Below, piece by piece: positions 1,604-63,525 of a stretch of DNA of 64,000 nt. Location: sequence record PQ850614.1. One strand, given 5' to 3'. A program made the position numbers and the translations under genes. Position 1 is the first letter of the stretch. Every line of letters starts with the position of its first letter. Source of the DNA: Escherichia phage LorandFenyves_Bas91. The notes under the pieces are model-generated. The model saw nothing but the letters and a program-made list of their open reading frames with translations. It was not told where the DNA came from and ran no database searches.

Positions 1604-3847
1604 ATGGCTAAGCAAAAATATAGTGAAGAGGTGTTGGACGAGTTACGTGTTGACCTTCAACGTCGTTTTAATTATGCTCAAGGCTACGTGGACATGGCTG
1701 TTAAGGGCTATGCTCGTGAAGCTTGGGAATATTTCTATGGTAACTTACCTGCACCAGTAACTGCTGGCAGCTCTAGTTGGGTAGATCGTACTGTTTGGGA
1801 ATCTGTTAACGGTACATTGCAAGATATTATTAACGTATTCTGCTCTGGTGATGAAGCAGTTACTTTCGTAGCTGACAACCAACAGGATTCTGATGCTGCT
1901 GATGTAGCAACTAAATTAGTTAACCAAATTCTTCTGCGTGACAATCCGGGATACAATATTATCTCTTCTGCTGCACAAGAATGTCTGGTTACTCGTAACT
2001 CTTTTATCAAGTATTATTGGGATGAACAAACTTCTACTCAAACTGAAGAAGCTGAAGGTGTACCACCGGAAGCATTGGCTGCATATGTTCAGGGATTAGA
2101 AGCTGGTGGACTCAAGAATCTGGAAGTCTTCACTGAAGAAAATGAAGACGGTACAGTCGATGTTAAAGTTACTTACGAACAAACTGTTAAACGTGTGAAA
2201 GTTGAATATGTTCCTTCAGAGCAAATCTTTGTTGATGAACATGCTACCTCTTTTGCAGATGCACAATACTTCTGTCATCGTGTACGTCGTTCTAAAGAAG
2301 ATCTGGTTGCTATGGGCTTCCCTAAAGATGAGATTGAAGCATTCAACGACTGGACAGACACGATGGATACCACTCAATCTACGGTTGCTTGGTCTCGTAC
2401 TGACTGGCGTCAGGATATTGATGCTGATATTGGTACAGATACCGAAGATATCGCTTCTATGGTTTGGGTTTATGAGCACTATATTCGTACTGGTGTTCTA
2501 GATAAGAATAAAGAGTCTAAACTCTATCAGGTTATTCAAGCTGGTGAGCATATCCTTCACACTGAAGAAGTAACTCACATTCCGTTTGTAACCTTCTGTC
2601 CGTATCCGATTCCGGGTTCCTTCTATGGTCAATCGGTCTATGACATTACGAAAGATATTCAAGATTTACGTACCGCGTTAGTTCGTGGTTATATTGATAA
2701 CGTCAACAATGCTAACTATGGTCGATACAAAGCTCTTGTTGGTGCATACGACCGTCGCTCTCTGCTTGATAACCGTCCCGGTGGAGTGGTTGAAATGGAA
2801 CGTCAGGACGCTATTGACCTGTTCCCATACCATAACCTACCTCAAGGTATTGACGGCCTTCTAGGCATGTCTGAGGAGCTTAAAGAGACACGTACCGGTG
2901 TAACCAAACTAGGCATGGGTATCAACCCTGATGTGTTTAAGAATGATAACGCTTATGCAACCGTAGGCTTGATGATGAATGCTGCACAGAACCGCCTCCG
3001 TATGGTATGTCGTAACATTGCTCACAACGGTATGGTTGAACTGATGCGTGGTATTTACAATCTTATCAGAGAAAATGGTGAAGTTCCTATTGAGGTACAA
3101 ACCCCTCGTGGTATGATTCAGGTAAATCCGAAACAATTACCAGCTCGTCACAATCTTCAAGTTGTTGTAGCTATCTCCCCTAATGAGAAAGCAGAACGTG
3201 CACAGAAACTGATTAGCTTGAAACAGCTGATTGCAGCAGATGCACAGTTAGCACCTCTCTTTGGTTTGGAGCAAGACCGTTACATGACTGCACAGATCTT
3301 TGAGTTGATGGGTATTAAAGATACACATAAATACCTTCTGCCTCTGGAACAGTATCAGCCTCCAGAACCTTCTCCGATGGAAATCCTCCAGCTCGAGATG
3401 ACTAAAGCTCAGGTTGAGAACGTACAGGCTTCTTCTCAGAAGATGATTGCTGATGCATTCGACCAACGTGAACGTACTACATTCGAACAGCAGAAAGCTG
3501 CGGATGAATTAAGTCTGCGTCAGGAAGAGTTGCAGTTCAAGCAAGAAAATGCAGCAGATGCAATGACTCTGGAAAACCGTAAAGAAGATAACAATGCTAC
3601 TCTGGAACAAGCTAAGCACAAGTTAGCTCTTATGCAACAGCAGGTCCGTCAGTATGAATCTGTACTGAAAGAATTGCAGATGGTTATGTCTCATCAGGTA
3701 GACCAAGAGAAGATTGTTCAGCAAGCTCGTGTTCAGGACAAAACTTTGGAACTCCAAAAGAAAGAAGCTAATGTAACTAAGAAAGAGCAACAAGCTTCTC
3801 TCAAAGATTCACGGATTCCAGGCAAACGTCTTGGAAGTAAAAAGTAA
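1604..3847 (+). CDS. portal protein
   Basis: 747 aa, immediately after terminase, long coiled-coil acidic C-terminus; RBS GGGAGAG upstream. Confidence 0.75.
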   Translation: MAKQKYSEEVLDELRVDLQRRFNYAQGYVDMAVKGYAREAWEYFYGNLPAPVTAGSSSWVDRTVWESVNGTLQDIINVFCSGDEAVTFVADNQQDSDAADVATKLVNQILLRDNPGYNIISSAAQECLVTRNSFIKYYWDEQTSTQTEEAEGVPPEALAAYVQGLEAGGLKNLEVFTEENEDGTVDVKVTYEQTVKRVKVEYVPSEQIFVDEHATSFADAQYFCHRVRRSKEDLVAMGFPKDEIEAFNDWTDTMDTTQSTVAWSRTDWRQDIDADIGTDTEDIASMVWVYEHYIRTGVLDKNKESKLYQVIQAGEHILHTEEVTHIPFVTFCPYPIPGSFYGQSVYDITKDIQDLRTALVRGYIDNVNNANYGRYKALVGAYDRRSLLDNRPGGVVEMERQDAIDLFPYHNLPQGIDGLLGMSEELKETRTGVTKLGMGINPDVFKNDNAYATVGLMMNAAQNRLRMVCRNIAHNGMVELMRGIYNLIRENGEVPIEVQTPRGMIQVNPKQLPARHNLQVVVAISPNEKAERAQKLISLKQLIAADAQLAPLFGLEQDRYMTAQIFELMGIKDTHKYLLPLEQYQPPEPSPMEILQLEMTKAQVENVQASSQKMIADAFDQRERTTFEQQKAADELSLRQEELQFKQENAADAMTLENRKEDNNATLEQAKHKLALMQQQVRQYESVLKELQMVMSHQVDQEKIVQQARVQDKTLELQKKEANVTKKEQQASLKDSRIPGKRLGSKK

Positions 3848-3856
3848 GGACGTCGA

Positions 3857-4093
3857 ATGAACATTAGGCATCAATTCAATAAAGAGCACGCCGCCGCTTT
3901 GGCGGCTCTCAATCTTAACGGCAGTCTTGACGCAGCATTAGAGGCATTGAAAGAAAGACTCATGACAGAGATAGTTCAAACCGAACCTCATGAGAATAAG
4001 AAACGCGAAGATTGTTATCAAAAGTATAAAATGGTGGGTAGCTTAAAAGAGGTCATAAAAGCTGCTATCAATAGTGCAGGAGATGTTTCATAA
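3857..4093 (+). CDS. hypothetical head-morphogenesis protein
   Basis: 78 aa ORF with AAGGA RBS; stop overlaps next start (TAATG). Confidence 0.45.
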   Translation: MNIRHQFNKEHAAALAALNLNGSLDAALEALKERLMTEIVQTEPHENKKREDCYQKYKMVGSLKEVIKAAINSAGDVS

Positions 4094-5169
4094 TGCCACA
4101 AGATAATTATATTGACCCGAACGATTTTAAATCTTTCCTCCAACTGGATGACCTGAAAGGTTCTTTCAAAGAAGAACTCGGTCGATTAGAATCTGAACAA
4201 GAACCAGAAGTGGACATTGACGATGAGTTCCCGGAAAAAGACGGTGACGATTTCGACTTTGATCCCGACCTTCTCGGTGAAAGCGATGAGCTTAAGTTCG
4301 AAGATGAAGATGGTTGGGAAGATCGTGAAGAGGAAGGCGAAGTCGAAGAAGATGAAGATGAATCCTCTGAAGCAGAAGAACAAGAGGAAGAAGATTCAAG
4401 CGATGCAGAGTATGAAGATGATTCTGCTGACGGTGAAGGTGAAGTCTTTGATGTAGACTACGAAACCGTTATCACCCTTCCTGATGGACGTGAGATGACT
4501 ATTGAAGAACTTTCTAATGGCTATCTTACTGGTGCTGATATGACAGAACGAGAATCAACTCTTCAGCGTCATATGGAAGCATTCGAGGAACGTGTAGTAG
4601 GTTTGAAGGATGTATTAGAACTAGCGTCTTTAGAAGCAGACCGAGTAATTGAAGATTATAACGGTTTTGATTGGGACAAGCTTGCAGTAGAAGATCCTCA
4701 AGCATATGTTGAAAACAAACGTTTCCTAGAGAAGTACACAGCTCGCCGTCAACAGCTTGAACAGGCTCAGGTCCGTATTAAGCAGGAAGCAGCAGCTAAA
4801 GAGCAGGAAGCTTTCCAAGCCAAGAGTATTGAATGTGTTAATATTCTGAAACGTGAGATTCCAAATTGGGATGAAAACTTATATCAAAACTTAATGCAAT
4901 ACGCAATTGACTTAGGTGCTACTGAAGAAGAGGTATTGAAGGAAAACCGTCCGTCTATTTTCCTAGCTCTCCATAAAGCATACCAATTTGATAAAGGTAA
5001 GCAACAGGTGATGGCTAAGATTAAACGTCCCGGTGCTCCACGCAAGGTTGTGAAGTCTGATGCTGCAAAGTCTCGCACTTCCAATAAGCCCGACAACGCT
5101 AAGGTTGCCAAGGCATTCGCAGAGGGTCGCGTTAGTCACGAAGACGCATTCAAATTCCTCGTAGATTAA
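4093..5169 (+). CDS. putative scaffolding protein
   Basis: Strongly acidic D/E-rich N-terminal half, helical coiled-coil C-terminal half; lies between portal and major capsid. Confidence 0.55.
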   Translation: MPQDNYIDPNDFKSFLQLDDLKGSFKEELGRLESEQEPEVDIDDEFPEKDGDDFDFDPDLLGESDELKFEDEDGWEDREEEGEVEEDEDESSEAEEQEEEDSSDAEYEDDSADGEGEVFDVDYETVITLPDGREMTIEELSNGYLTGADMTERESTLQRHMEAFEERVVGLKDVLELASLEADRVIEDYNGFDWDKLAVEDPQAYVENKRFLEKYTARRQQLEQAQVRIKQEAAAKEQEAFQAKSIECVNILKREIPNWDENLYQNLMQYAIDLGATEEEVLKENRPSIFLALHKAYQFDKGKQQVMAKIKRPGAPRKVVKSDAAKSRTSNKPDNAKVAKAFAEGRVSHEDAFKFLVD

Positions 5170-5210
5170 TCGACAAATTAAATTATTAATAGTATAGGAG
5201 CTAACATAAC

Positions 5211-6269
5211 ATGGCTAATCCAACTTTATTTGTATCGTATGACCAGAATGGTAAAAAACTTTCTTTTGCTAACTGGATTTCTGTTCTGTCCCCTCAGGAT
5301 ACCCCGTTCGTATCTATGACCGGTAAAGAGTCTATCAACCAGACTATCTTTAGCTGGCAGACCGATGCACTGGCAAGCGTTGACGGTAATAACGCACACG
5401 TCGAAGGCTCTCGTGCTGAAGACGGCGAAATGAAACCGACTGTTATCAAATCTAACGTTACTCAGATTCTGCGTAAGGTTGTTCGCGTTTCTGATACTGC
5501 TAACACCACCGCTAACTACGGTCGTGGTCGTGAACTGATGTATCAGCTGGAGAAGAAAGGTAAAGAGATCAAGCGTGACCTCGAGAAAATCCTTCTGTCC
5601 GGTCAGGCTCGTACCGATGTTCTGGCTGACCAGTATCTGACTAACTCCGCAGCTGATCCTGCTGTTGCTGGTCTGAATGACACCCATGCAGCTCGTAAGA
5701 CTGGTGCATTCCAGTTCCTGTGTGCTCACGGTGGTCTGGCTGGTGGCGTTGTTGACAAGACCAAGAATGGTCCTGCTGACCCGGATACTGGTGCAGTAAC
5801 TGTTAAAGTTGCACAGAATGCTTCTAACCCGACCACTAACATCGGTTTTGATGAAGCTGATATCTTTGATATGACTCTGCAACTGTACACCGCTGGTTCT
5901 GAAGCAGATATCATCATGATTAACCCGGCTCATGCTAAGATCTTCGCTGGTCTGCAAGAAAATACTCAGGGTTCACGTAAGCGTATCTTTGAGAACACCA
6001 AGCAGTTCATCTACGAAGTTAACAGCATCACTGACCCGCTGGGCCAGAGCTACAAAATCATCGTTAACCGTTGGATGCCTACCGATGCAGTTTACTTCTT
6101 CCGTAGCGCTGACTGGACTCAGATGGTTCTGCGTGCTCCGAAACGTACTGAACTGGCGAAAGATGGTTCTTACGAGAAGTGGATGATTGAAATGGAAGTT
6201 GGTCTGCGTCACCGCAACCCGTATGCTTCCGGCGTTCTGTTCACTGCTGCGGGAAAGGTGGCGGCGTAA
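5211..6269 (+). CDS. major capsid protein
   Basis: 352 aa; position after scaffold; strong terminator downstream; HK97-fold is expected from position, not verified. Confidence 0.75.
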   Translation: MANPTLFVSYDQNGKKLSFANWISVLSPQDTPFVSMTGKESINQTIFSWQTDALASVDGNNAHVEGSRAEDGEMKPTVIKSNVTQILRKVVRVSDTANTTANYGRGRELMYQLEKKGKEIKRDLEKILLSGQARTDVLADQYLTNSAADPAVAGLNDTHAARKTGAFQFLCAHGGLAGGVVDKTKNGPADPDTGAVTVKVAQNASNPTTNIGFDEADIFDMTLQLYTAGSEADIIMINPAHAKIFAGLQENTQGSRKRIFENTKQFIYEVNSITDPLGQSYKIIVNRWMPTDAVYFFRSADWTQMVLRAPKRTELAKDGSYEKWMIEMEVGLRHRNPYASGVLFTAAGKVAA

Positions 6270-6793
6270 CAGTAGACAGTGTGACTGTTAGCCCTGCGTC
6301 TTTAGCTAGTCTAGAGACAGGGGCTACTCGGCAGTTCACTGCAAGCGCGGAGAAAAGTGATGGTTCTACCGAAACAACTGGCTTTACTTGGTCAGTGACA
6401 GGAGGTGGTTCTATCACTCAGTCGGGTTTGTATGCTGCTCCGAGTGCGTCTCAATCCACTGATGTATCCATTACTGCAACTTTAGAAGGTGTTTCTGGAA
6501 CAGCAACCATTTCTGAAATTGTTGCTCCTGCTCCTACTATTGTAGCTAAGGGTCCAATTACGGGTAAAACTGGTGGTTCCTCCACTAATTTCACTACCAT
6601 GTTTACTGTAACTAATTCTGCTGCTGCGGATTACACGTTTGTTGTAACTCCTACAGAAGCTGGTACAGTAAGCGCAGCTGGTGCGTTAACCTTAGATGCT
6701 GCTGCAAGTGGCGAAGTTACTGTTCAAGCAAGTTTGACAGCTGATCCGTCCATCAATGCAACATGCACTTTTACTGGTGTAACACCTGCTTAA
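5211..6793 (+). CDS. major capsid protein with C-terminal Ig-like (BIG2-type) extension made by -1 frameshift
   Basis: The -1 frame is open from 6191 to 6793 and overlaps the capsid 3' end; slippery heptamer G GGA AAG lies 10 nt before the capsid stop; downstream frame encodes a Thr/Ser/Gly-rich Ig-like domain. Confidence 0.5.
6251..6257 (+). other. -1 programmed frameshift slippery heptamer GGGAAAG
   Basis: X XXY YYZ pattern in the capsid reading frame, same heptamer as the lambda G-T shift site; a short possible hairpin ACAGT...ACTGT follows at about 6269-6288. Confidence 0.5.
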
Positions 6794-6800
6794 AACTAGA

Positions 6801-6830
6801 CCCTGCCTTCGGGCGGGGTTTTTTCGTTTT
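6801..6830 (+). terminator. rho-independent terminator after capsid gene
   Basis: CCCTGCC-TTCG-GGCGGGG stem-loop followed by TTTTTTCGTTTT. Confidence 0.8.
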
Positions 6831-6852
6831 AAGACCTATACAAGCAAGTGTG

Positions 6853-6861
6853 TAATGTATA
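6853..6861 (+). promoter_or_regulatory. TAATGTATA element, candidate phage-sigma promoter
   Basis: Exact 9-mer 34 nt upstream of the ATG at 6895, directly after the capsid terminator; same 9-mer recurs at 23765 and twice in the 33.5-33.9 kb intergenic region. Confidence 0.45.
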
Positions 6862-6894
6862 TTCTTTGTCTACATATAACAAGGAGGACAACCT

Positions 6895-7656: not shown

Positions 7657-10299
7657 ATGATCGTTTATAATAACCAAGCACCTGATGCAGTGAATAACGT
7701 TGGGCAGTTTGGTGCTACTGAAGGCTCTATCGGGGCTTATAAGCAAGCAGCAGAATATGCAGCTGACTCCAAATATTGGGCACTGTTAGCAGAATCTAAG
7801 TTTGGTACAATTGATGATTTGATCGCTGAAGTAGAACGTTTATATCAGCAAGGTGTTCTGATGAAGCAGGATATCGAAGATCTTAAGCAGGACTTTAAAG
7901 ATCAAGATGCTCGTCTGATGAGTTTGATTGCTCAAACTAACGCAGCGGTATCAGATGCGAATAATGCTGTAGCTCTAATTAATCAGAAACTTATTGAAGT
8001 CCAGAACCAGCTTGACGTTCTGTTAGGAATGTCCGTTGATGTAACCACACTTCCTCCGGGAACTCCGGCTACTGGTTCTTTTAATCCTAACACTGGTGTA
8101 ATTTCTTTAGGTATCCCAGAAGGCGAACCCGGAAAGGATGGTTCTGTTAAGGATTTAGACACAGCTCCTACTGGTGTTCCAGAGCTAGGTGACTTGGGTT
8201 TCTATGTTGATAAAGATGACAATACCGTCCATAAAACTACTCTAGAGAATATTGCTAACTTAATCCCATCTGTTCGTTCTGTTTCTGTTAATGGGGGACC
8301 AGCTCTTGATGGAGAGGTTGCTCTAACAATCAACAAAGAGACAGTAGGTTTAGGAAATGTTCTGAATGTTGCTCAGTACAGTCGTCAAGAGATTAATGAC
8401 AAATTTGACAAGACTACCAAGACATACCAATCAAAAGCAGAAGCTGATGCTGATGCTCAGTATCGTCAAGTAGGTGAGAAAGTTTTAGTTTGGGAAGCTA
8501 CTAAGTATGAATTCTATACTGTTGCTGCTAACAAAACATTGACTCCAGTTAAAACTGAAGGTAGAATTCTTACCGTTAACTCCCGTTCTCCAGATTCCAG
8601 TGGTAACATTGACATTACCATTCCAACAGGAAACCCTTCTCTGTATCTTGGTGAGATGGTGATGTTCCCTTACGACCCATCTAAGAATATCTCCTACCCA
8701 GGAGTTCTTCCTGCTGATGGTCGTCTGGTATCAAAAGAATCTGCTTCAGATTTAGGCCCATCCCTTGTCAGCGGACAGCTCCCTGTTGTTTCAGAAACTG
8801 AATGGCAATCGGGGGCTAAACAGTACTTCTCTTGGGGCAAGTTAGCAGACGGTATTACCGATGCGGATTCTACTAATTTTATCAACATTCGACTCCCTGA
8901 TTGGACTGGAGGGGAGGCAATAAGAGCACCAGATTCTGATAAAGACTCTCAGTACAATGGGTCTGTACAGGCTCAGAAACCTTATGTTGTTACTGTAAAT
9001 AACCAAGCTCCTGATGAGATTACTGGTAATGTGAACATCTCCAGATCAATTTTAGGTGCTGCTTCTTCTGGAGCAAACTCTGACATTACATCTTTATCTG
9101 GACTCACAACACCGCTATCCATCTCTCAAGGTGGTACTGGAGCTAAAGATGCTGCTGGTGCTCGTTCTAATTTAGGTCTAGGCTCAACAGCTACCCTCAA
9201 CACAATACCTGTAGCCAATGGTGGCACAGGAGCAACTACTGTTGATGTTGCTCGTTCCAATTTATCCATAGACCGAATAGATCAAGCCTCCGGGGAGAGT
9301 AAATTATTATCCCCTAACAAAGAAACCTACCTCTTTGTGGATAACAATGGGTGGGGCTGTTATAGTACCTCAGCTGGAAGGGTTGGTGATGTGGCTCTTT
9401 CTGTTGAAAGAGGCGGTACTGGAGCTAAAAATGCTGCTAGTGCCCGATCTAACTTGGGGTTGGGGAGTGTTTCCACTCTAGATAACGTCCCTATCGCTAG
9501 TGGTGGGACAGGGGCTGGAGATGCTGCTGGTGCAAGGTTTAATCTTGGGTTAGGTAACTCAGCCACGATGAATACCGGAACTAACAGTGATAATGTTCTT
9601 AAGGTTGGTGATTTTGGAATTGGAAGACCTGACGGCGCTCTTGTTTTTGATACTACTTCACAAGACCAACTTCTTGCTGGACTTGACACTTATGGGCTGT
9701 GTGTGTTTAGGAATAACCAACAAATAGCAGCACCTTGGGACATATGGAACTACTCCTCAAACCTTTTCTTTAGGGCGGGTGACACATACAGTATGATAAG
9801 TATTCCGTTTGAGTCTGCTGGTAAGATAAAAGTTTTTGGTGGTGCATCAGGCAGTGGGTGGAAAACCTCAAGGACGGTATATGATACTGTAAATACAACT
9901 GTTGACGTCAATGGCTTTATCAAAGCAGCGTCACCAATAGTTAAGGTATTCCATGACGGAAGTTTTGAAACAAACGAACAATCTGATGGAGTTAGTGTTA
10001 AGAAAATCTCCACCGGGGTTTATTTAATTTCAGGGTGTCTTGGTCTTAATTCTGATGCAGGATGGGGTGGTGTAGATGGAGGTTTTGAAATCCCAATAGA
10101 CCGAAACAAACAACCTAGAGTTTGGCTTGACTATGAGGTTAAAGAGGATGGTTCTCTTTTAATTAAAACTTATCATAGAACCCATTCAACATCCCCAGCT
10201 TTTGCTAGAAACGAGTTGGAAGGTTTTTCTGACGGAGACCCTGTTGACATTCCTAAGGATGCGTTCATTTCGGTTCGTGTTGAAATGCCTTCTAAGTAA
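7657..10299 (+). CDS. tail fibre protein with GGTGA...AR.NLGLG repeats
   Basis: Three or more repeats (SQGGTGAKDAAGARSNLGLGS, ERGGTGAKNAASARSNLGLGS, SGGTGAGDAAGARFNLGLGN) typical of phage tail-fibre repeats. Confidence 0.7.
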   Translation: MIVYNNQAPDAVNNVGQFGATEGSIGAYKQAAEYAADSKYWALLAESKFGTIDDLIAEVERLYQQGVLMKQDIEDLKQDFKDQDARLMSLIAQTNAAVSDANNAVALINQKLIEVQNQLDVLLGMSVDVTTLPPGTPATGSFNPNTGVISLGIPEGEPGKDGSVKDLDTAPTGVPELGDLGFYVDKDDNTVHKTTLENIANLIPSVRSVSVNGGPALDGEVALTINKETVGLGNVLNVAQYSRQEINDKFDKTTKTYQSKAEADADAQYRQVGEKVLVWEATKYEFYTVAANKTLTPVKTEGRILTVNSRSPDSSGNIDITIPTGNPSLYLGEMVMFPYDPSKNISYPGVLPADGRLVSKESASDLGPSLVSGQLPVVSETEWQSGAKQYFSWGKLADGITDADSTNFINIRLPDWTGGEAIRAPDSDKDSQYNGSVQAQKPYVVTVNNQAPDEITGNVNISRSILGAASSGANSDITSLSGLTTPLSISQGGTGAKDAAGARSNLGLGSTATLNTIPVANGGTGATTVDVARSNLSIDRIDQASGESKLLSPNKETYLFVDNNGWGCYSTSAGRVGDVALSVERGGTGAKNAASARSNLGLGSVSTLDNVPIASGGTGAGDAAGARFNLGLGNSATMNTGTNSDNVLKVGDFGIGRPDGALVFDTTSQDQLLAGLDTYGLCVFRNNQQIAAPWDIWNYSSNLFFRAGDTYSMISIPFESAGKIKVFGGASGSGWKTSRTVYDTVNTTVDVNGFIKAASPIVKVFHDGSFETNEQSDGVSVKKISTGVYLISGCLGLNSDAGWGGVDGGFEIPIDRNKQPRVWLDYEVKEDGSLLIKTYHRTHSTSPAFARNELEGFSDGDPVDIPKDAFISVRVEMPSK

Positions 10300-63449: not shown

Positions 63450-63525
63450 TGGTCGGGACGGAAGGATTCGAACCCTCGTAAGGCGAGTTAGAAGCTCGCT
63501 GCCTGTTCCACTAGACTACGCCCCG
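63450..63525 (-). tRNA. tRNA-Arg (anticodon UCU), CCA encoded
   Basis: Hand-folded cloverleaf: acceptor CGGGGCG/CGTCCCG, D-arm GTCT-AGTGGAAC-AGGC, anticodon arm GCGAG-CTTCTAA-CTCGC, variable CTTAC, T-arm GAGGG-TTCGAAT-CCTTC, discriminator A, CCA. Confidence 0.8.

Follow-up and report, generated by a model that had tools for sequence, protein, structure and literature searches.

Evidence for a programmed −1 frameshift that appends tandem Ig-like domains to the major capsid protein of a Kuravirus coliphage

INTRODUCTION

How does a phage translate a reading frame that overlaps the end of its major capsid protein gene, encodes Ig-like domains, and has no conserved start codon of its own? The question is raised by positions 5211 to 6793 of a 64,000-nucleotide stretch of DNA from Escherichia phage LorandFenyves_Bas91 (record PQ850614.1). 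This whole stretch was analyzed and is referred to here as the window. The original prediction for the locus was a −1 frameshift that fuses the Ig-like region to the capsid protein. That proposal is supported by the conservation of the slip site, the lack of a conserved start, in-frame fusions in relatives, and the published literature. We consider it highly probable that programmed −1 ribosomal frameshifting at the heptamer G GGA AAG (6251–6257) gives rise to capsid-Ig fusions as minor capsid subunits.

Capsid frameshifting that adds Ig-like domains is already known in the Kuravirus group, and what we describe is nothing new in kind. Later papers trace the frameshift back to the phiEco32 publication of 2008 (PMC4281155, PMC7881722, PMC9965538). 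Slippage on GGGAAAG "as in phage phiEco32" was reported for SU10 (PMC4281155), and the same frameshift was described for YF01 and "other group phages" (PMC9965538). None of the GenBank records that we inspected joins the Ig ORF to the capsid gene. In most records of these phages, the closest matches among them, the ORF stands alone and is named "Ig domain containing protein" or "hypothetical protein."

RESULTS

The capsid gene and its locus

The phage of the window is a Kuravirus (phiEco32-like) coliphage. Its major capsid protein gene (5211..6269; this and all features below are on the + strand) is read in the zero frame from an ATG start and encodes 352 amino acids (38.6 kDa) of the HK97-fold SU10_MCP family. 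The ORF list and the translation both end the gene at 6269, in agreement with the original prediction. Pfam SU10_MCP (PF17236) matches residues 12 to 344 with 258.7 bits against a cut-off of 24.1 (E = 1e-76), and a phmmer search shows near-identity along the whole protein with the solved structure of the SU10 major head protein (7z45, chain 7z45_A; E = 7.5e-237). Capsid identity by tblastn is 99.7% to SU10 and 100% to ES17. In a nucleotide search, 72 records covered at least 80% of 5211–6793. The best 40 records share 96 to 99% nucleotide identity with this region, and nearly all are Escherichia or Shigella Kuraviruses. With the same capsid, the same Ig ORF, and the same synteny, this is the orthologous Kuravirus locus.

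An in-register slippery heptamer before the capsid stop

The capsid gene ends with the zero-frame codons GCG GGA AAG GTG GCG GCG TAA. The heptamer G GGA AAG (6251..6257) lies in the X XXY YYZ register of canonical bacterial −1 frameshift sites, as checked by script, and 9 nt separate it from the TAA (6267–6269); its predicted location just before the capsid stop is thereby confirmed. It is the single in-register heptamer of the capsid gene. Its GGA is the sole GGA among 26 glycine codons of that gene, and the GCG at the slip site is one of just 4 among 38 alanine codons. The bare motif GGGAAAG is not enriched in the whole window (5 copies observed versus 6.8 expected; not significant). We also looked on both strands, in ORFs 100 codons or longer, for in-register X XXY YYZ heptamers (n = 57). 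Only the capsid site had a −1 frame running at least 50 codons beyond the zero-frame stop, with 174 codons. At this site, the −1 frame has no stop over the heptamer and runs on as a long ORF past the zero-frame stop.

The −1 frame encodes two Ig-like domains

The −1 frame has a stop at 6188–6190 and is then open from 6191 to a TAA at 6791–6793, and here the translation reproduces the original prediction. The extension proper (6257..6793; 178 codons plus TAA) would be read only after a slip. The predicted fusion joins capsid residues 1 to 349 to 178 further residues, making 527 amino acids and 55.5 kDa (short form: 352 amino acids, 38.6 kDa). The long form had been expected to be about 18 kDa larger; the computed difference is 16.9 kDa. 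Across the junction, the predicted sequence is ...FTAAGK-GGGVTVDSVTVSP.... Chymotryptic or Glu-C digestion is predicted to give a junction-spanning peptide, ...TAAGKGGGVTVD, and trypsin a peptide, GGGVTVDSVTVSPASLASLETGATR; the codons for the first 8 residues of this tryptic peptide precede the GTG at 6281.

Pfam Big_2 (PF02368) matches the extension in two stretches with a score barely above the cut-off (24.3 versus 22.8 bits). The AlphaFold model is all-beta, with two beta-sandwiches and a pLDDT of 96.5. Domain 1 (Big_2; 6269..6520) spans approximately extension residues 5 to 88, with the Pfam match at residues 6 to 83, and domain 2 (6530..6790), the second beta-sandwich in the model, spans approximately residues 92 to 178. 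Among PDB structures, the model matches Leptospira LigA best, at its tandem Big_2 domains (E = 5e-11); LigA, intimin, invasin, and a Big_2-CBM56 protein match the model over both domains. PHROG 13745 and 33551, both "Ig domain containing protein," also match the extension. The score above cut-off and the beta-sandwich fold together assign it to Big_2. The original prediction was therefore right about the Ig-like character of the extension and wrong about a single domain: the model points with high confidence to two tandem Big_2-type Ig-like domains. A PDB sequence search with the extension returned no match; thus, no solved structure shows the long isoform.

Codon usage differs between the two parts of the predicted fusion. 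GC3 is 0.47 in the capsid gene versus 0.26 in the extension, and leucine is encoded by 19 CTG and 1 TTA/TTG codons in the former versus 0 CTG and 6 TTA/TTG codons in the latter. This contrast fits an extension that is a rarely translated, separately acquired module.

The slip site is retained in distant relatives

A slip site at the same position is retained in relatives down to 42% capsid identity, including some in which the heptamer itself differs. GGGAAAG is present in all Kuravirus loci fetched (L001–L008, L022, L023) and in Privateerviruses (L015, L016), the latter at 57% capsid identity. The Kuravirus AidaStucki keeps GGGAAAG despite a different 3′ flank. In PJNS034 (42% capsid identity), C CCA AAA replaces it. 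Lahexavirus-like contigs (L009–L011) have G GTA AAG together with a GC hairpin, and L012 and L024 have GGTAAAG with no notable hairpin. In each relative with a slip site, a −1 ORF of 90 to 180 codons comes next and encodes Big_2 or I-set domains. The Ig domains are modular across relatives, with one to three or more copies. Salmonella phage SE131 and Aeromonas phage BUCT695 each have a second capsid paralog (SU10_MCP) with an in-frame Big_2 domain.

A separate start codon is not conserved

The principal alternative is that a gene of its own encodes the Ig-like protein ("gp12"), which would be made by weak independent initiation at GTG 6281 or by re-initiation after the capsid TAA and would serve as a free decoration or accessory protein. 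This GTG, codon 9 of the extension, is in frame and lies 12 nt after the capsid TAA, a stop-to-start distance that permits coupling. Most GenBank records have a separate 170-aa CDS here, and the authors of the SU10 cryo-EM study took gp10 to be a possible low-affinity minor capsid protein. Against this, the 20 nt preceding 6281 contain no Shine-Dalgarno sequence, and the equivalent codon is GTA in L006 and L007 and ATA in L005, with the amino acid sequence kept. In other lineages, the first possible start is 17 to 61 codons inside the domain (the first in-frame start of Privateervirus is codon 61), and gene callers disagree from one homologue to another, with five or more different internal starts chosen. 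The downstream ORF thus has neither a conserved start codon nor a conserved ribosome-binding site. Furthermore, the predicted first beta-strand of the Ig domain (extension residues 6 to 12) begins upstream of GTG 6281, where conserved residues also lie, and the −1 frame from the heptamer to 6281 has no stop in any intact relative. The existence of relatives with in-frame capsid-Big_2 fusions also argues against a free protein. On balance, we regard separate initiation as improbable.

AAGGTGG at 6255–6261 was considered as a Shine-Dalgarno sequence for GTG 6281 and rejected; its spacing is 19 nt, and the sequence is unconserved, with AAGGCGG, AAGGCAG, and AAGTTGG as counterparts in relatives.

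The −1 ORF is open in the fetched relatives other than SU10

Less credible still is that the extension is a decaying remnant, left when a former in-frame capsid-Ig fusion was broken by a frameshift mutation, and is not meaningfully expressed. The observations that favor such decay come from SU10. Its record has one extra base approximately 30 nt after the heptamer (around record position 8420), absent from the window, which closes the −1 frame. The SU10 cryo-EM study has no density for the Ig-like protein, and, as the YF01 authors report, that study also gave no extended-isoform band by SDS-PAGE (PMC9965538). The extension would thus be dispensable in at least one laboratory stock. The missing density and band also count against the frameshift itself, but they concern a phage whose recorded −1 frame is closed. 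The SU10 mass spectrometry table adds little in favor of the frameshift: by our own arithmetic, residue coverage of "gp9+10" is close to that of gp9 alone (PMC4281155). Against decay, every other relative fetched has an unbroken −1 ORF, and these relatives come from several phage groups and span 42 to 99% capsid identity. The high-confidence Ig models and the modular domain number do not suit a remnant, nor does a heptamer that is retained where the adjacent sequence changes and that uses a codon (GGA) otherwise avoided in the capsid gene. We therefore think decay very unlikely.

Transcriptional slippage (RNA polymerase stuttering) would make the same protein product, and sequence alone gives no formal separation from a ribosomal slip, but it is scarcely believable here: the homopolymer runs at this site are only G3 and A3, far below the length of A or T run (about 7 or more) that supports polymerase slippage, and the motif is a textbook X XXY YYZ tandem-tRNA slip site, identical to that of lambda G-T.

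RNA structure around the slip site and termination downstream

A candidate stimulatory hairpin (6263..6293) begins 5 nt after the heptamer and has 10 bp with one bulge (−10.8 kcal/mol). It is more stable than most shuffled sequences (z = −2.46; 4 of 200 shuffles fold as well) and, compared with 32-nt windows of the local background, ranks among the top 1.2%. Shorter segments give z scores of −2.3 to −2.5, and the signal varies with the segment chosen for folding. L005, L006, and L022 retain the inner stem of 7 bp. Comparable hairpins occur in L015 and L009–L011, L005 has a weaker one, and L012 has none. An alignment fold recovered three pairs with double changes among six closely related sequences, which is too little divergence to serve as proof. 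The hairpin may help the slip.

Two other structures were considered as stimulators and rejected. A 90-nt fold starting from the heptamer was no better than shuffles (z = −0.73), and its main stem starts approximately 24 nt after the heptamer, too distant to affect a slipping ribosome. In the SU10 proposal (CTGCTGC-GGGAAAG-GCGGCGG; PMC4281155), the heptamer forms part of the loop of a stem-loop, which would be melted by a ribosome on the site. An Rfam scan of the whole window found one tRNA and no known frameshift element.

A scan placed an intrinsic terminator at 6798..6831, with a 10-bp stem (6 GC pairs), a TTCG loop, and a T-run, and the same scan found no terminator-like hairpin on the + strand from the capsid stop to 6793. 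The original prediction had put a strong terminator after the extension and not after the capsid stop, and this arrangement is what we find. The SU10 GenBank record has a terminator annotated at the same place.

DISCUSSION

A model for the minor capsid form

We propose that most ribosomes would read GGA AAG GTG GCG GCG TAA and terminate there, with the 352-aa major capsid protein as product. At the slip site, three codons before the capsid stop, a minority would slip back by one base, with the P-site tRNA-Gly moving from GGA to GGG and the A-site tRNA-Lys from AAG to AAA. The slipped ribosomes would then read 178 further codons in the −1 frame to 6793, and the product would be a 527-aa capsid subunit that ends in a tandem pair of Big_2-type Ig-like domains. 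The modest hairpin 5 nt downstream (6263–6293) may aid the slip. The long form would be a minor subunit co-assembled in the prolate head, with its Ig-like domains on the surface, where they would probably provide weak adhesion to carbohydrate-rich surfaces.

Such a subunit could matter in practice. Kuraviruses are candidate therapy phages, and mucus binding has been described for ES17, whose capsid protein is 100% identical to that of the window. If a few of the 715 capsid copies bore Ig domains, adherence to mucus or to cell surfaces could be affected. Slippage of 3.5 to 10%, extrapolated to 715 subunits, would correspond to 25 to 70 long copies. The frameshift site would also offer a natural low-copy display position, like the 10B proteins of T7 and K1F that are used for display.

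A broader reading, which we offer tentatively and with some doubt, is that the C-terminal recoding junction of SU10-type capsids is an old "socket," common to many lineages, in which surface modules are exchanged. Across lineages, the position is kept and the heptamers differ (G GGA AAG, C CCA AAA, G GTA AAG), and most of the sampled lineages have a short hairpin, of lineage-specific sequence, 3′ of the heptamer. The attached Ig families also differ (Big_2 or I-set, in one to several copies), and in some lineages a second copy of the capsid gene, fused in frame, has taken the place of recoding. Were the socket reading true, the hairpin at 6263–6293 would be the real stimulator, and not the SU10 stem-loop that encloses the slip site.

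Comparison with known systems

The closest systems are phiEco32 gp11/gp12 and SU10 gp9/gp10, whose locus is 98.4 to 98.7% identical in DNA to that of the window. The gene order is as here (portal, small ORF, scaffold, capsid, Ig ORF, terminator), and GGGAAAG occupies the same position. Heptamer, stop spacing, and the 178-codon extension all match between the window and phiEco32 (L003). The sizes reported for SU10 (38.5 and 55.4 kDa; PMC4281155), themselves predictions, are close to those predicted for the window (38.6 and 55.5 kDa). SU10 differs in the extra base that closes its −1 frame, whereas the frame of the window is intact, as in phiEco32.

Privateer and other Privateerviruses resemble the window in having GGGAAAG at the capsid C-terminus followed by a −1 extension of approximately 169 amino acids. 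They are unlike it in capsid identity (57%) and in a heptamer that directly abuts the TAA. The Privateer extension consists of I-set plus Big_2, whereas that of the window consists of two Big_2-like domains. For Privateer, the gel showed two capsid bands, and mass spectrometry detected the minor form (PMC7881722).

The original prediction drew an analogy with T7 10A/10B. The analogy holds for the mechanism only, and no relationship between the capsid proteins was detected: SU10_MCP is the sole Pfam match of the capsid protein, and T7 gp10 was absent from a PDB sequence search that found only SU10 and one other podophage capsid. As in the window, T7 and T3 10A/10B and K1F 10b have a −1 shift near the capsid 3′ end and a C-terminally extended minor subunit. 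The T7 slip site is G GUU UUC, and the 10B extension is shorter. According to the works cited in PMC7881722 and PMC9965538, the extended subunit of T7, T3, and K1F is displayed on the head surface.

Lambda G/GT fuses tail chaperones and yields an assembly factor, whereas the window would fuse a capsid protein to Ig domains. The lambda site uses the identical heptamer, G GGA AAG. Its −1 slip is of low efficiency, about 3.5% as cited in PMC9965538.

Big_2 and I-set domains are likewise appended to virion proteins in T4 and RB49 Hoc, T5 pb6, and the C-terminus of lambda gpV, and PDB matches of the extension model include the T5 pb6 Ig domain and RB49 Hoc. Fraser and colleagues reportedly noted in 2006 that phage Ig-like domains are often added through frameshifts. 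Weak surface adhesion has been proposed for these domains (PMC9965538, citing Fraser). Hoc decorates the capsid as a protein of its own that binds to it; in the window, by contrast, the Ig domains would be a covalent part of the subunit. Last, SE131 gp027/gp028 and BUCT695 gp122/gp121 belong to the same SU10_MCP family and carry Big_2 at the same C-terminal attachment point, but they do so with two genes and no recoding. In those phages, the ratio of plain to decorated subunits would follow gene expression, and not slip efficiency.

Slip site and genomic setting

The capsid ORF (5211-6269; 352 aa, 38.6 kDa) ends in the zero-frame codons GCG GGA AAG GTG GCG GCG TAA. The slippery heptamer GGGAAAG (6251-6257) therefore fits the X XXY YYZ register and is separated from the capsid stop by 9 nt. 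In the -1 frame, a stop at 6188-6190 is followed by open sequence up to a TAA at 6791-6793. A terminator-like hairpin with a T-run lies downstream of this extension (6798-6831), and no such hairpin was found after the capsid stop. On rechecking, the coordinates in the original prediction were all right, and the terminator does follow the extension rather than the capsid stop, as had been claimed.

Bare GGGAAAG is not rare in the window (5 copies observed, 6.8 expected). Among ORFs of at least 100 codons on both strands, we counted 57 in-register X XXY YYZ heptamers, and only the capsid one has a -1 frame running at least 50 codons beyond the zero-frame stop; here it runs for 174 codons. Codon choice at the heptamer points in the same direction as the uniqueness of this configuration. 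GGT or GGC encodes 25 of the 26 capsid glycines, the single GGA being the heptamer's own, and GCG serves for 4 of 38 alanines, one of which supplies the heptamer's first G. An ORF of 243 codons antisense to the capsid gene (5226-5957, minus strand) is most likely a by-product of that gene's strong codon bias rather than a real gene.

The region 5211-6793 is 96 to 99% identical to the best-matching 40 phage records; almost all of these are Kuraviruses of Escherichia or Shigella (for example CHD5UKE1, 99.2%; SU10, 98.7%; phiEco32, 98.4%). ES17 has an identical capsid protein (100%), and SU10, whose capsid structure is solved, has one that is 99.7% identical. The gene order (terminase, 747-aa portal, small ORF, 358-aa scaffold, 352-aa capsid, Ig ORF, terminator, tail genes) is the same in the phiEco32 and SU10 records. 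In Escherichia phage MLP3, the Ig ORF's terminator and the following structural gene are separated by an inserted HNH homing endonuclease gene (5182-5694 of locus L023), which has no counterpart at the equivalent place here (6832-6894). ARAGORN and Rfam searches of the window yielded a single RNA gene, a tRNA-Arg (anticodon TCT; 63450-63525, minus strand).

Two Ig-like domains in the extension

Slippage at the heptamer would give a product reading ...FTAAGK-GGGVTVDSVTVSP..., with 527 aa and 55.5 kDa. The sizes listed for SU10, 38.5 and 55.4 kDa, match those of our short and long forms (PMC4281155). The computed gain is 16.9 kDa, slightly below the roughly 18 kDa originally estimated.

The 178-residue extension narrowly passes the Pfam Big_2 cut-off (24.3 versus 22.8 bits) and matches PHROG families annotated as 'Ig domain containing protein'. 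An AlphaFold model, built from an alignment of 19 database homologues, has two tandem beta-sandwich domains (pLDDT 96.5). Among solved structures, it best matches the tandem Big_2 domains of Leptospira LigA (E 5e-11); Ig-like domains of intimin, invasin and S-layer proteins come next, and the T5 pb6 Ig domain, RB49 Hoc and the SU10 Ig-like nozzle domains are also among the hits. The model and these matches therefore indicate two Ig-like domains, not the single one first proposed. A PDB sequence search returned no solved structure containing the extension. Homologues of the extension are modular: in one, an extra Big_2 is inserted amid the pair, and in several a third domain is appended at the C-terminus. 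In Kuravirus-like phages, long isoforms reaching 892-894 aa have been reported (PMC9965538).

At the junction, codon usage shifts abruptly: GC3 drops from 0.47 in the capsid to 0.26 in the extension. The capsid is dominated by CTG, ACT/ACC and GGT, and the extension makes frequent use of TTA, ACA, AGT and GTA; for leucine, CTG and TTA/TTG are used 19 times and once in the capsid, and 0 and 6 times in the extension. Such a shift fits a separately acquired, rarely translated module, and points to a different origin or to low translation.

Separate gene or frameshift product

The Ig ORF could instead be a gene in its own right, as its annotated start (GTG 6281) implies. The 20 nt preceding that codon contain no Shine-Dalgarno sequence. 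In close relatives it is GTA (L006, L007) or ATA (L005), with the protein sequence kept. Gene callers have picked at least five different internal starts for public homologues, many at 'MSDGST', residue 33 of the extension and within the first Ig domain. Furthermore, residues 6-12 form the model's first beta-strand, which starts ahead of the GTG at codon 9.

More distant relatives provide the strongest evidence on this choice. In Privateerviruses (57% capsid identity), G GGA AAG abuts the TAA, and the earliest possible start in the 169-codon -1 ORF is codon 61. Escherichia phage PJNS034 (42% identity) has C CCA AAA (4385-4391 of L020), a stop 3 nt on and a 132-codon -1 ORF. In Lahexavirus-like contigs and LAh_9 the motif is the non-canonical G GTA AAG (4412-4418 in L009-L012 and L024), with -1 ORFs of 90-171 codons. 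Different slip motifs occupy one capsid C-terminal position. The domains that follow also differ: I-set plus Big_2 in Privateerviruses, I-set-like in PJNS034, two Big_2 in the Lahexavirus-like contigs and I-set in LAh_9. Position and recoding are therefore conserved, and heptamer and cargo vary. In AidaStucki_Bas93, bases just 3' of the heptamer are altered (GGGAAAGTTGGATCC...), with the heptamer and both frames retained.

Other relatives have tandem capsid paralogs, with Big_2 fused in frame to the downstream copy and no frameshift site. Salmonella phage SE131 (L018 2485-3423 and 3501-5261) and Aeromonas phage BUCT695 (L019 3501-4472 and 4549-5781) each have two adjacent copies, the second combining an SU10_MCP domain with Big_2 (586 and 410 aa, respectively). 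These fusions show that covalent attachment at the capsid C-terminus is the proper arrangement for the Ig domains. Locus L013 also has two copies, and a 125-kb IMG/VR contig (L014) has four consecutive ones (3-449, 913-1818, 2300-3310 and 3501-4415). One paralog on that contig ends with a dnaX-type A AAA AAG (4421-4427) and a stop 3 nt on; its -1 frame adds just 42 codons.

Tandem tRNA slippage on G GGA AAG, yielding a minor capsid subunit, is very probably the mechanism, and the frameshift interpretation first put forward is supported.

RNA structure 3' of the heptamer

A 90-nt fold starting at the heptamer is unremarkable (z -0.73). Folding of 6258-6320, the segment earlier suggested for structure prediction, gave z -2.34. 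Within it, a candidate hairpin (6263-6293; -10.8 kcal/mol, z -2.46) begins 5 nt 3' of the heptamer; among the 32-nt windows of the surrounding 6 kb it ranks within the top 1.2%. Unrelated sequences form hairpins at the same spacing in Privateervirus (top 1.9%) and in L009-L011 (top 0.8-2.9%), the latter being a GC-rich tetraloop hairpin 6 nt past G GTA AAG. Local fold comparison found none at that spacing in L012 and a weaker one in L005. Kuraviruses diverge too little for their alignment fold to provide covariation proof; a stimulatory role for the hairpin is plausible but unproven. In the stem-loop put forward for SU10 (PMC4281155), the slip site lies inside the structure, which by inference would be unwound with the ribosome on that site.

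Copy number, function and known systems

Cited frameshift efficiencies are ~3.5% in lambda and ~10% in T7 and T3 (PMC9965538), and the SU10 head has 715 capsid copies (PMC9509320). By extrapolation, 3.5-10% slippage would place some 25-70 long subunits in each head. Comparison with Ig-like domains of other phages (Fraser et al., as cited in PMC9965538) and with T7/K1F 10B display leads us to infer that the domains may be surface-displayed and adhesive.

SU10 cryo-EM showed no density for the Ig-like protein (PMC9509320). The YF01 authors point out that SDS-PAGE in that work lacked an extended-isoform band, and that the SU10 -1 frame has a premature stop (PMC9965538). Our alignment traces this stop to one extra base in SU10 record KM044272 (near 8420), ~30 nt past the heptamer, which closes the -1 frame (CACTGTCTACTG at about 2570-2577 of L021 against CAGTGT-GACTG at 6281-6287 here). 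The base is absent from our phage and phiEco32 and, if real, would explain the missing density. SU10 mass spectrometry covered 78.1% of the 352 aa of gp9 (23 peptides) and 50.29% of the 527 aa of 'gp9+10' (22 peptides; PMC4281155 Table 2), by our arithmetic ~265-275 residues each. This similar coverage gives no clear extension-specific evidence, so the 'gp9+10' entry alone does not show peptides of the Ig extension.

The feature is already known for Kuravirus and relatives. For SU10, slippage at GGGAAAG has been described as in phiEco32 (PMC4281155). Privateer has the same signal, two capsid bands and a detected minor form, and its authors name phiEco32 and SU10 as phages in which the frameshifted product has been seen (PMC7881722). 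Two isoforms, with heptamer, -1 frame and Ig-like cargo, are described for 'YF01 and other group phages' (PMC9965538). Across the relatives, the comparative pattern combines one attachment point with several heptamers and several Ig families, plus a capsid gene duplication in some lineages: a tidy addition to a known feature rather than a surprise.
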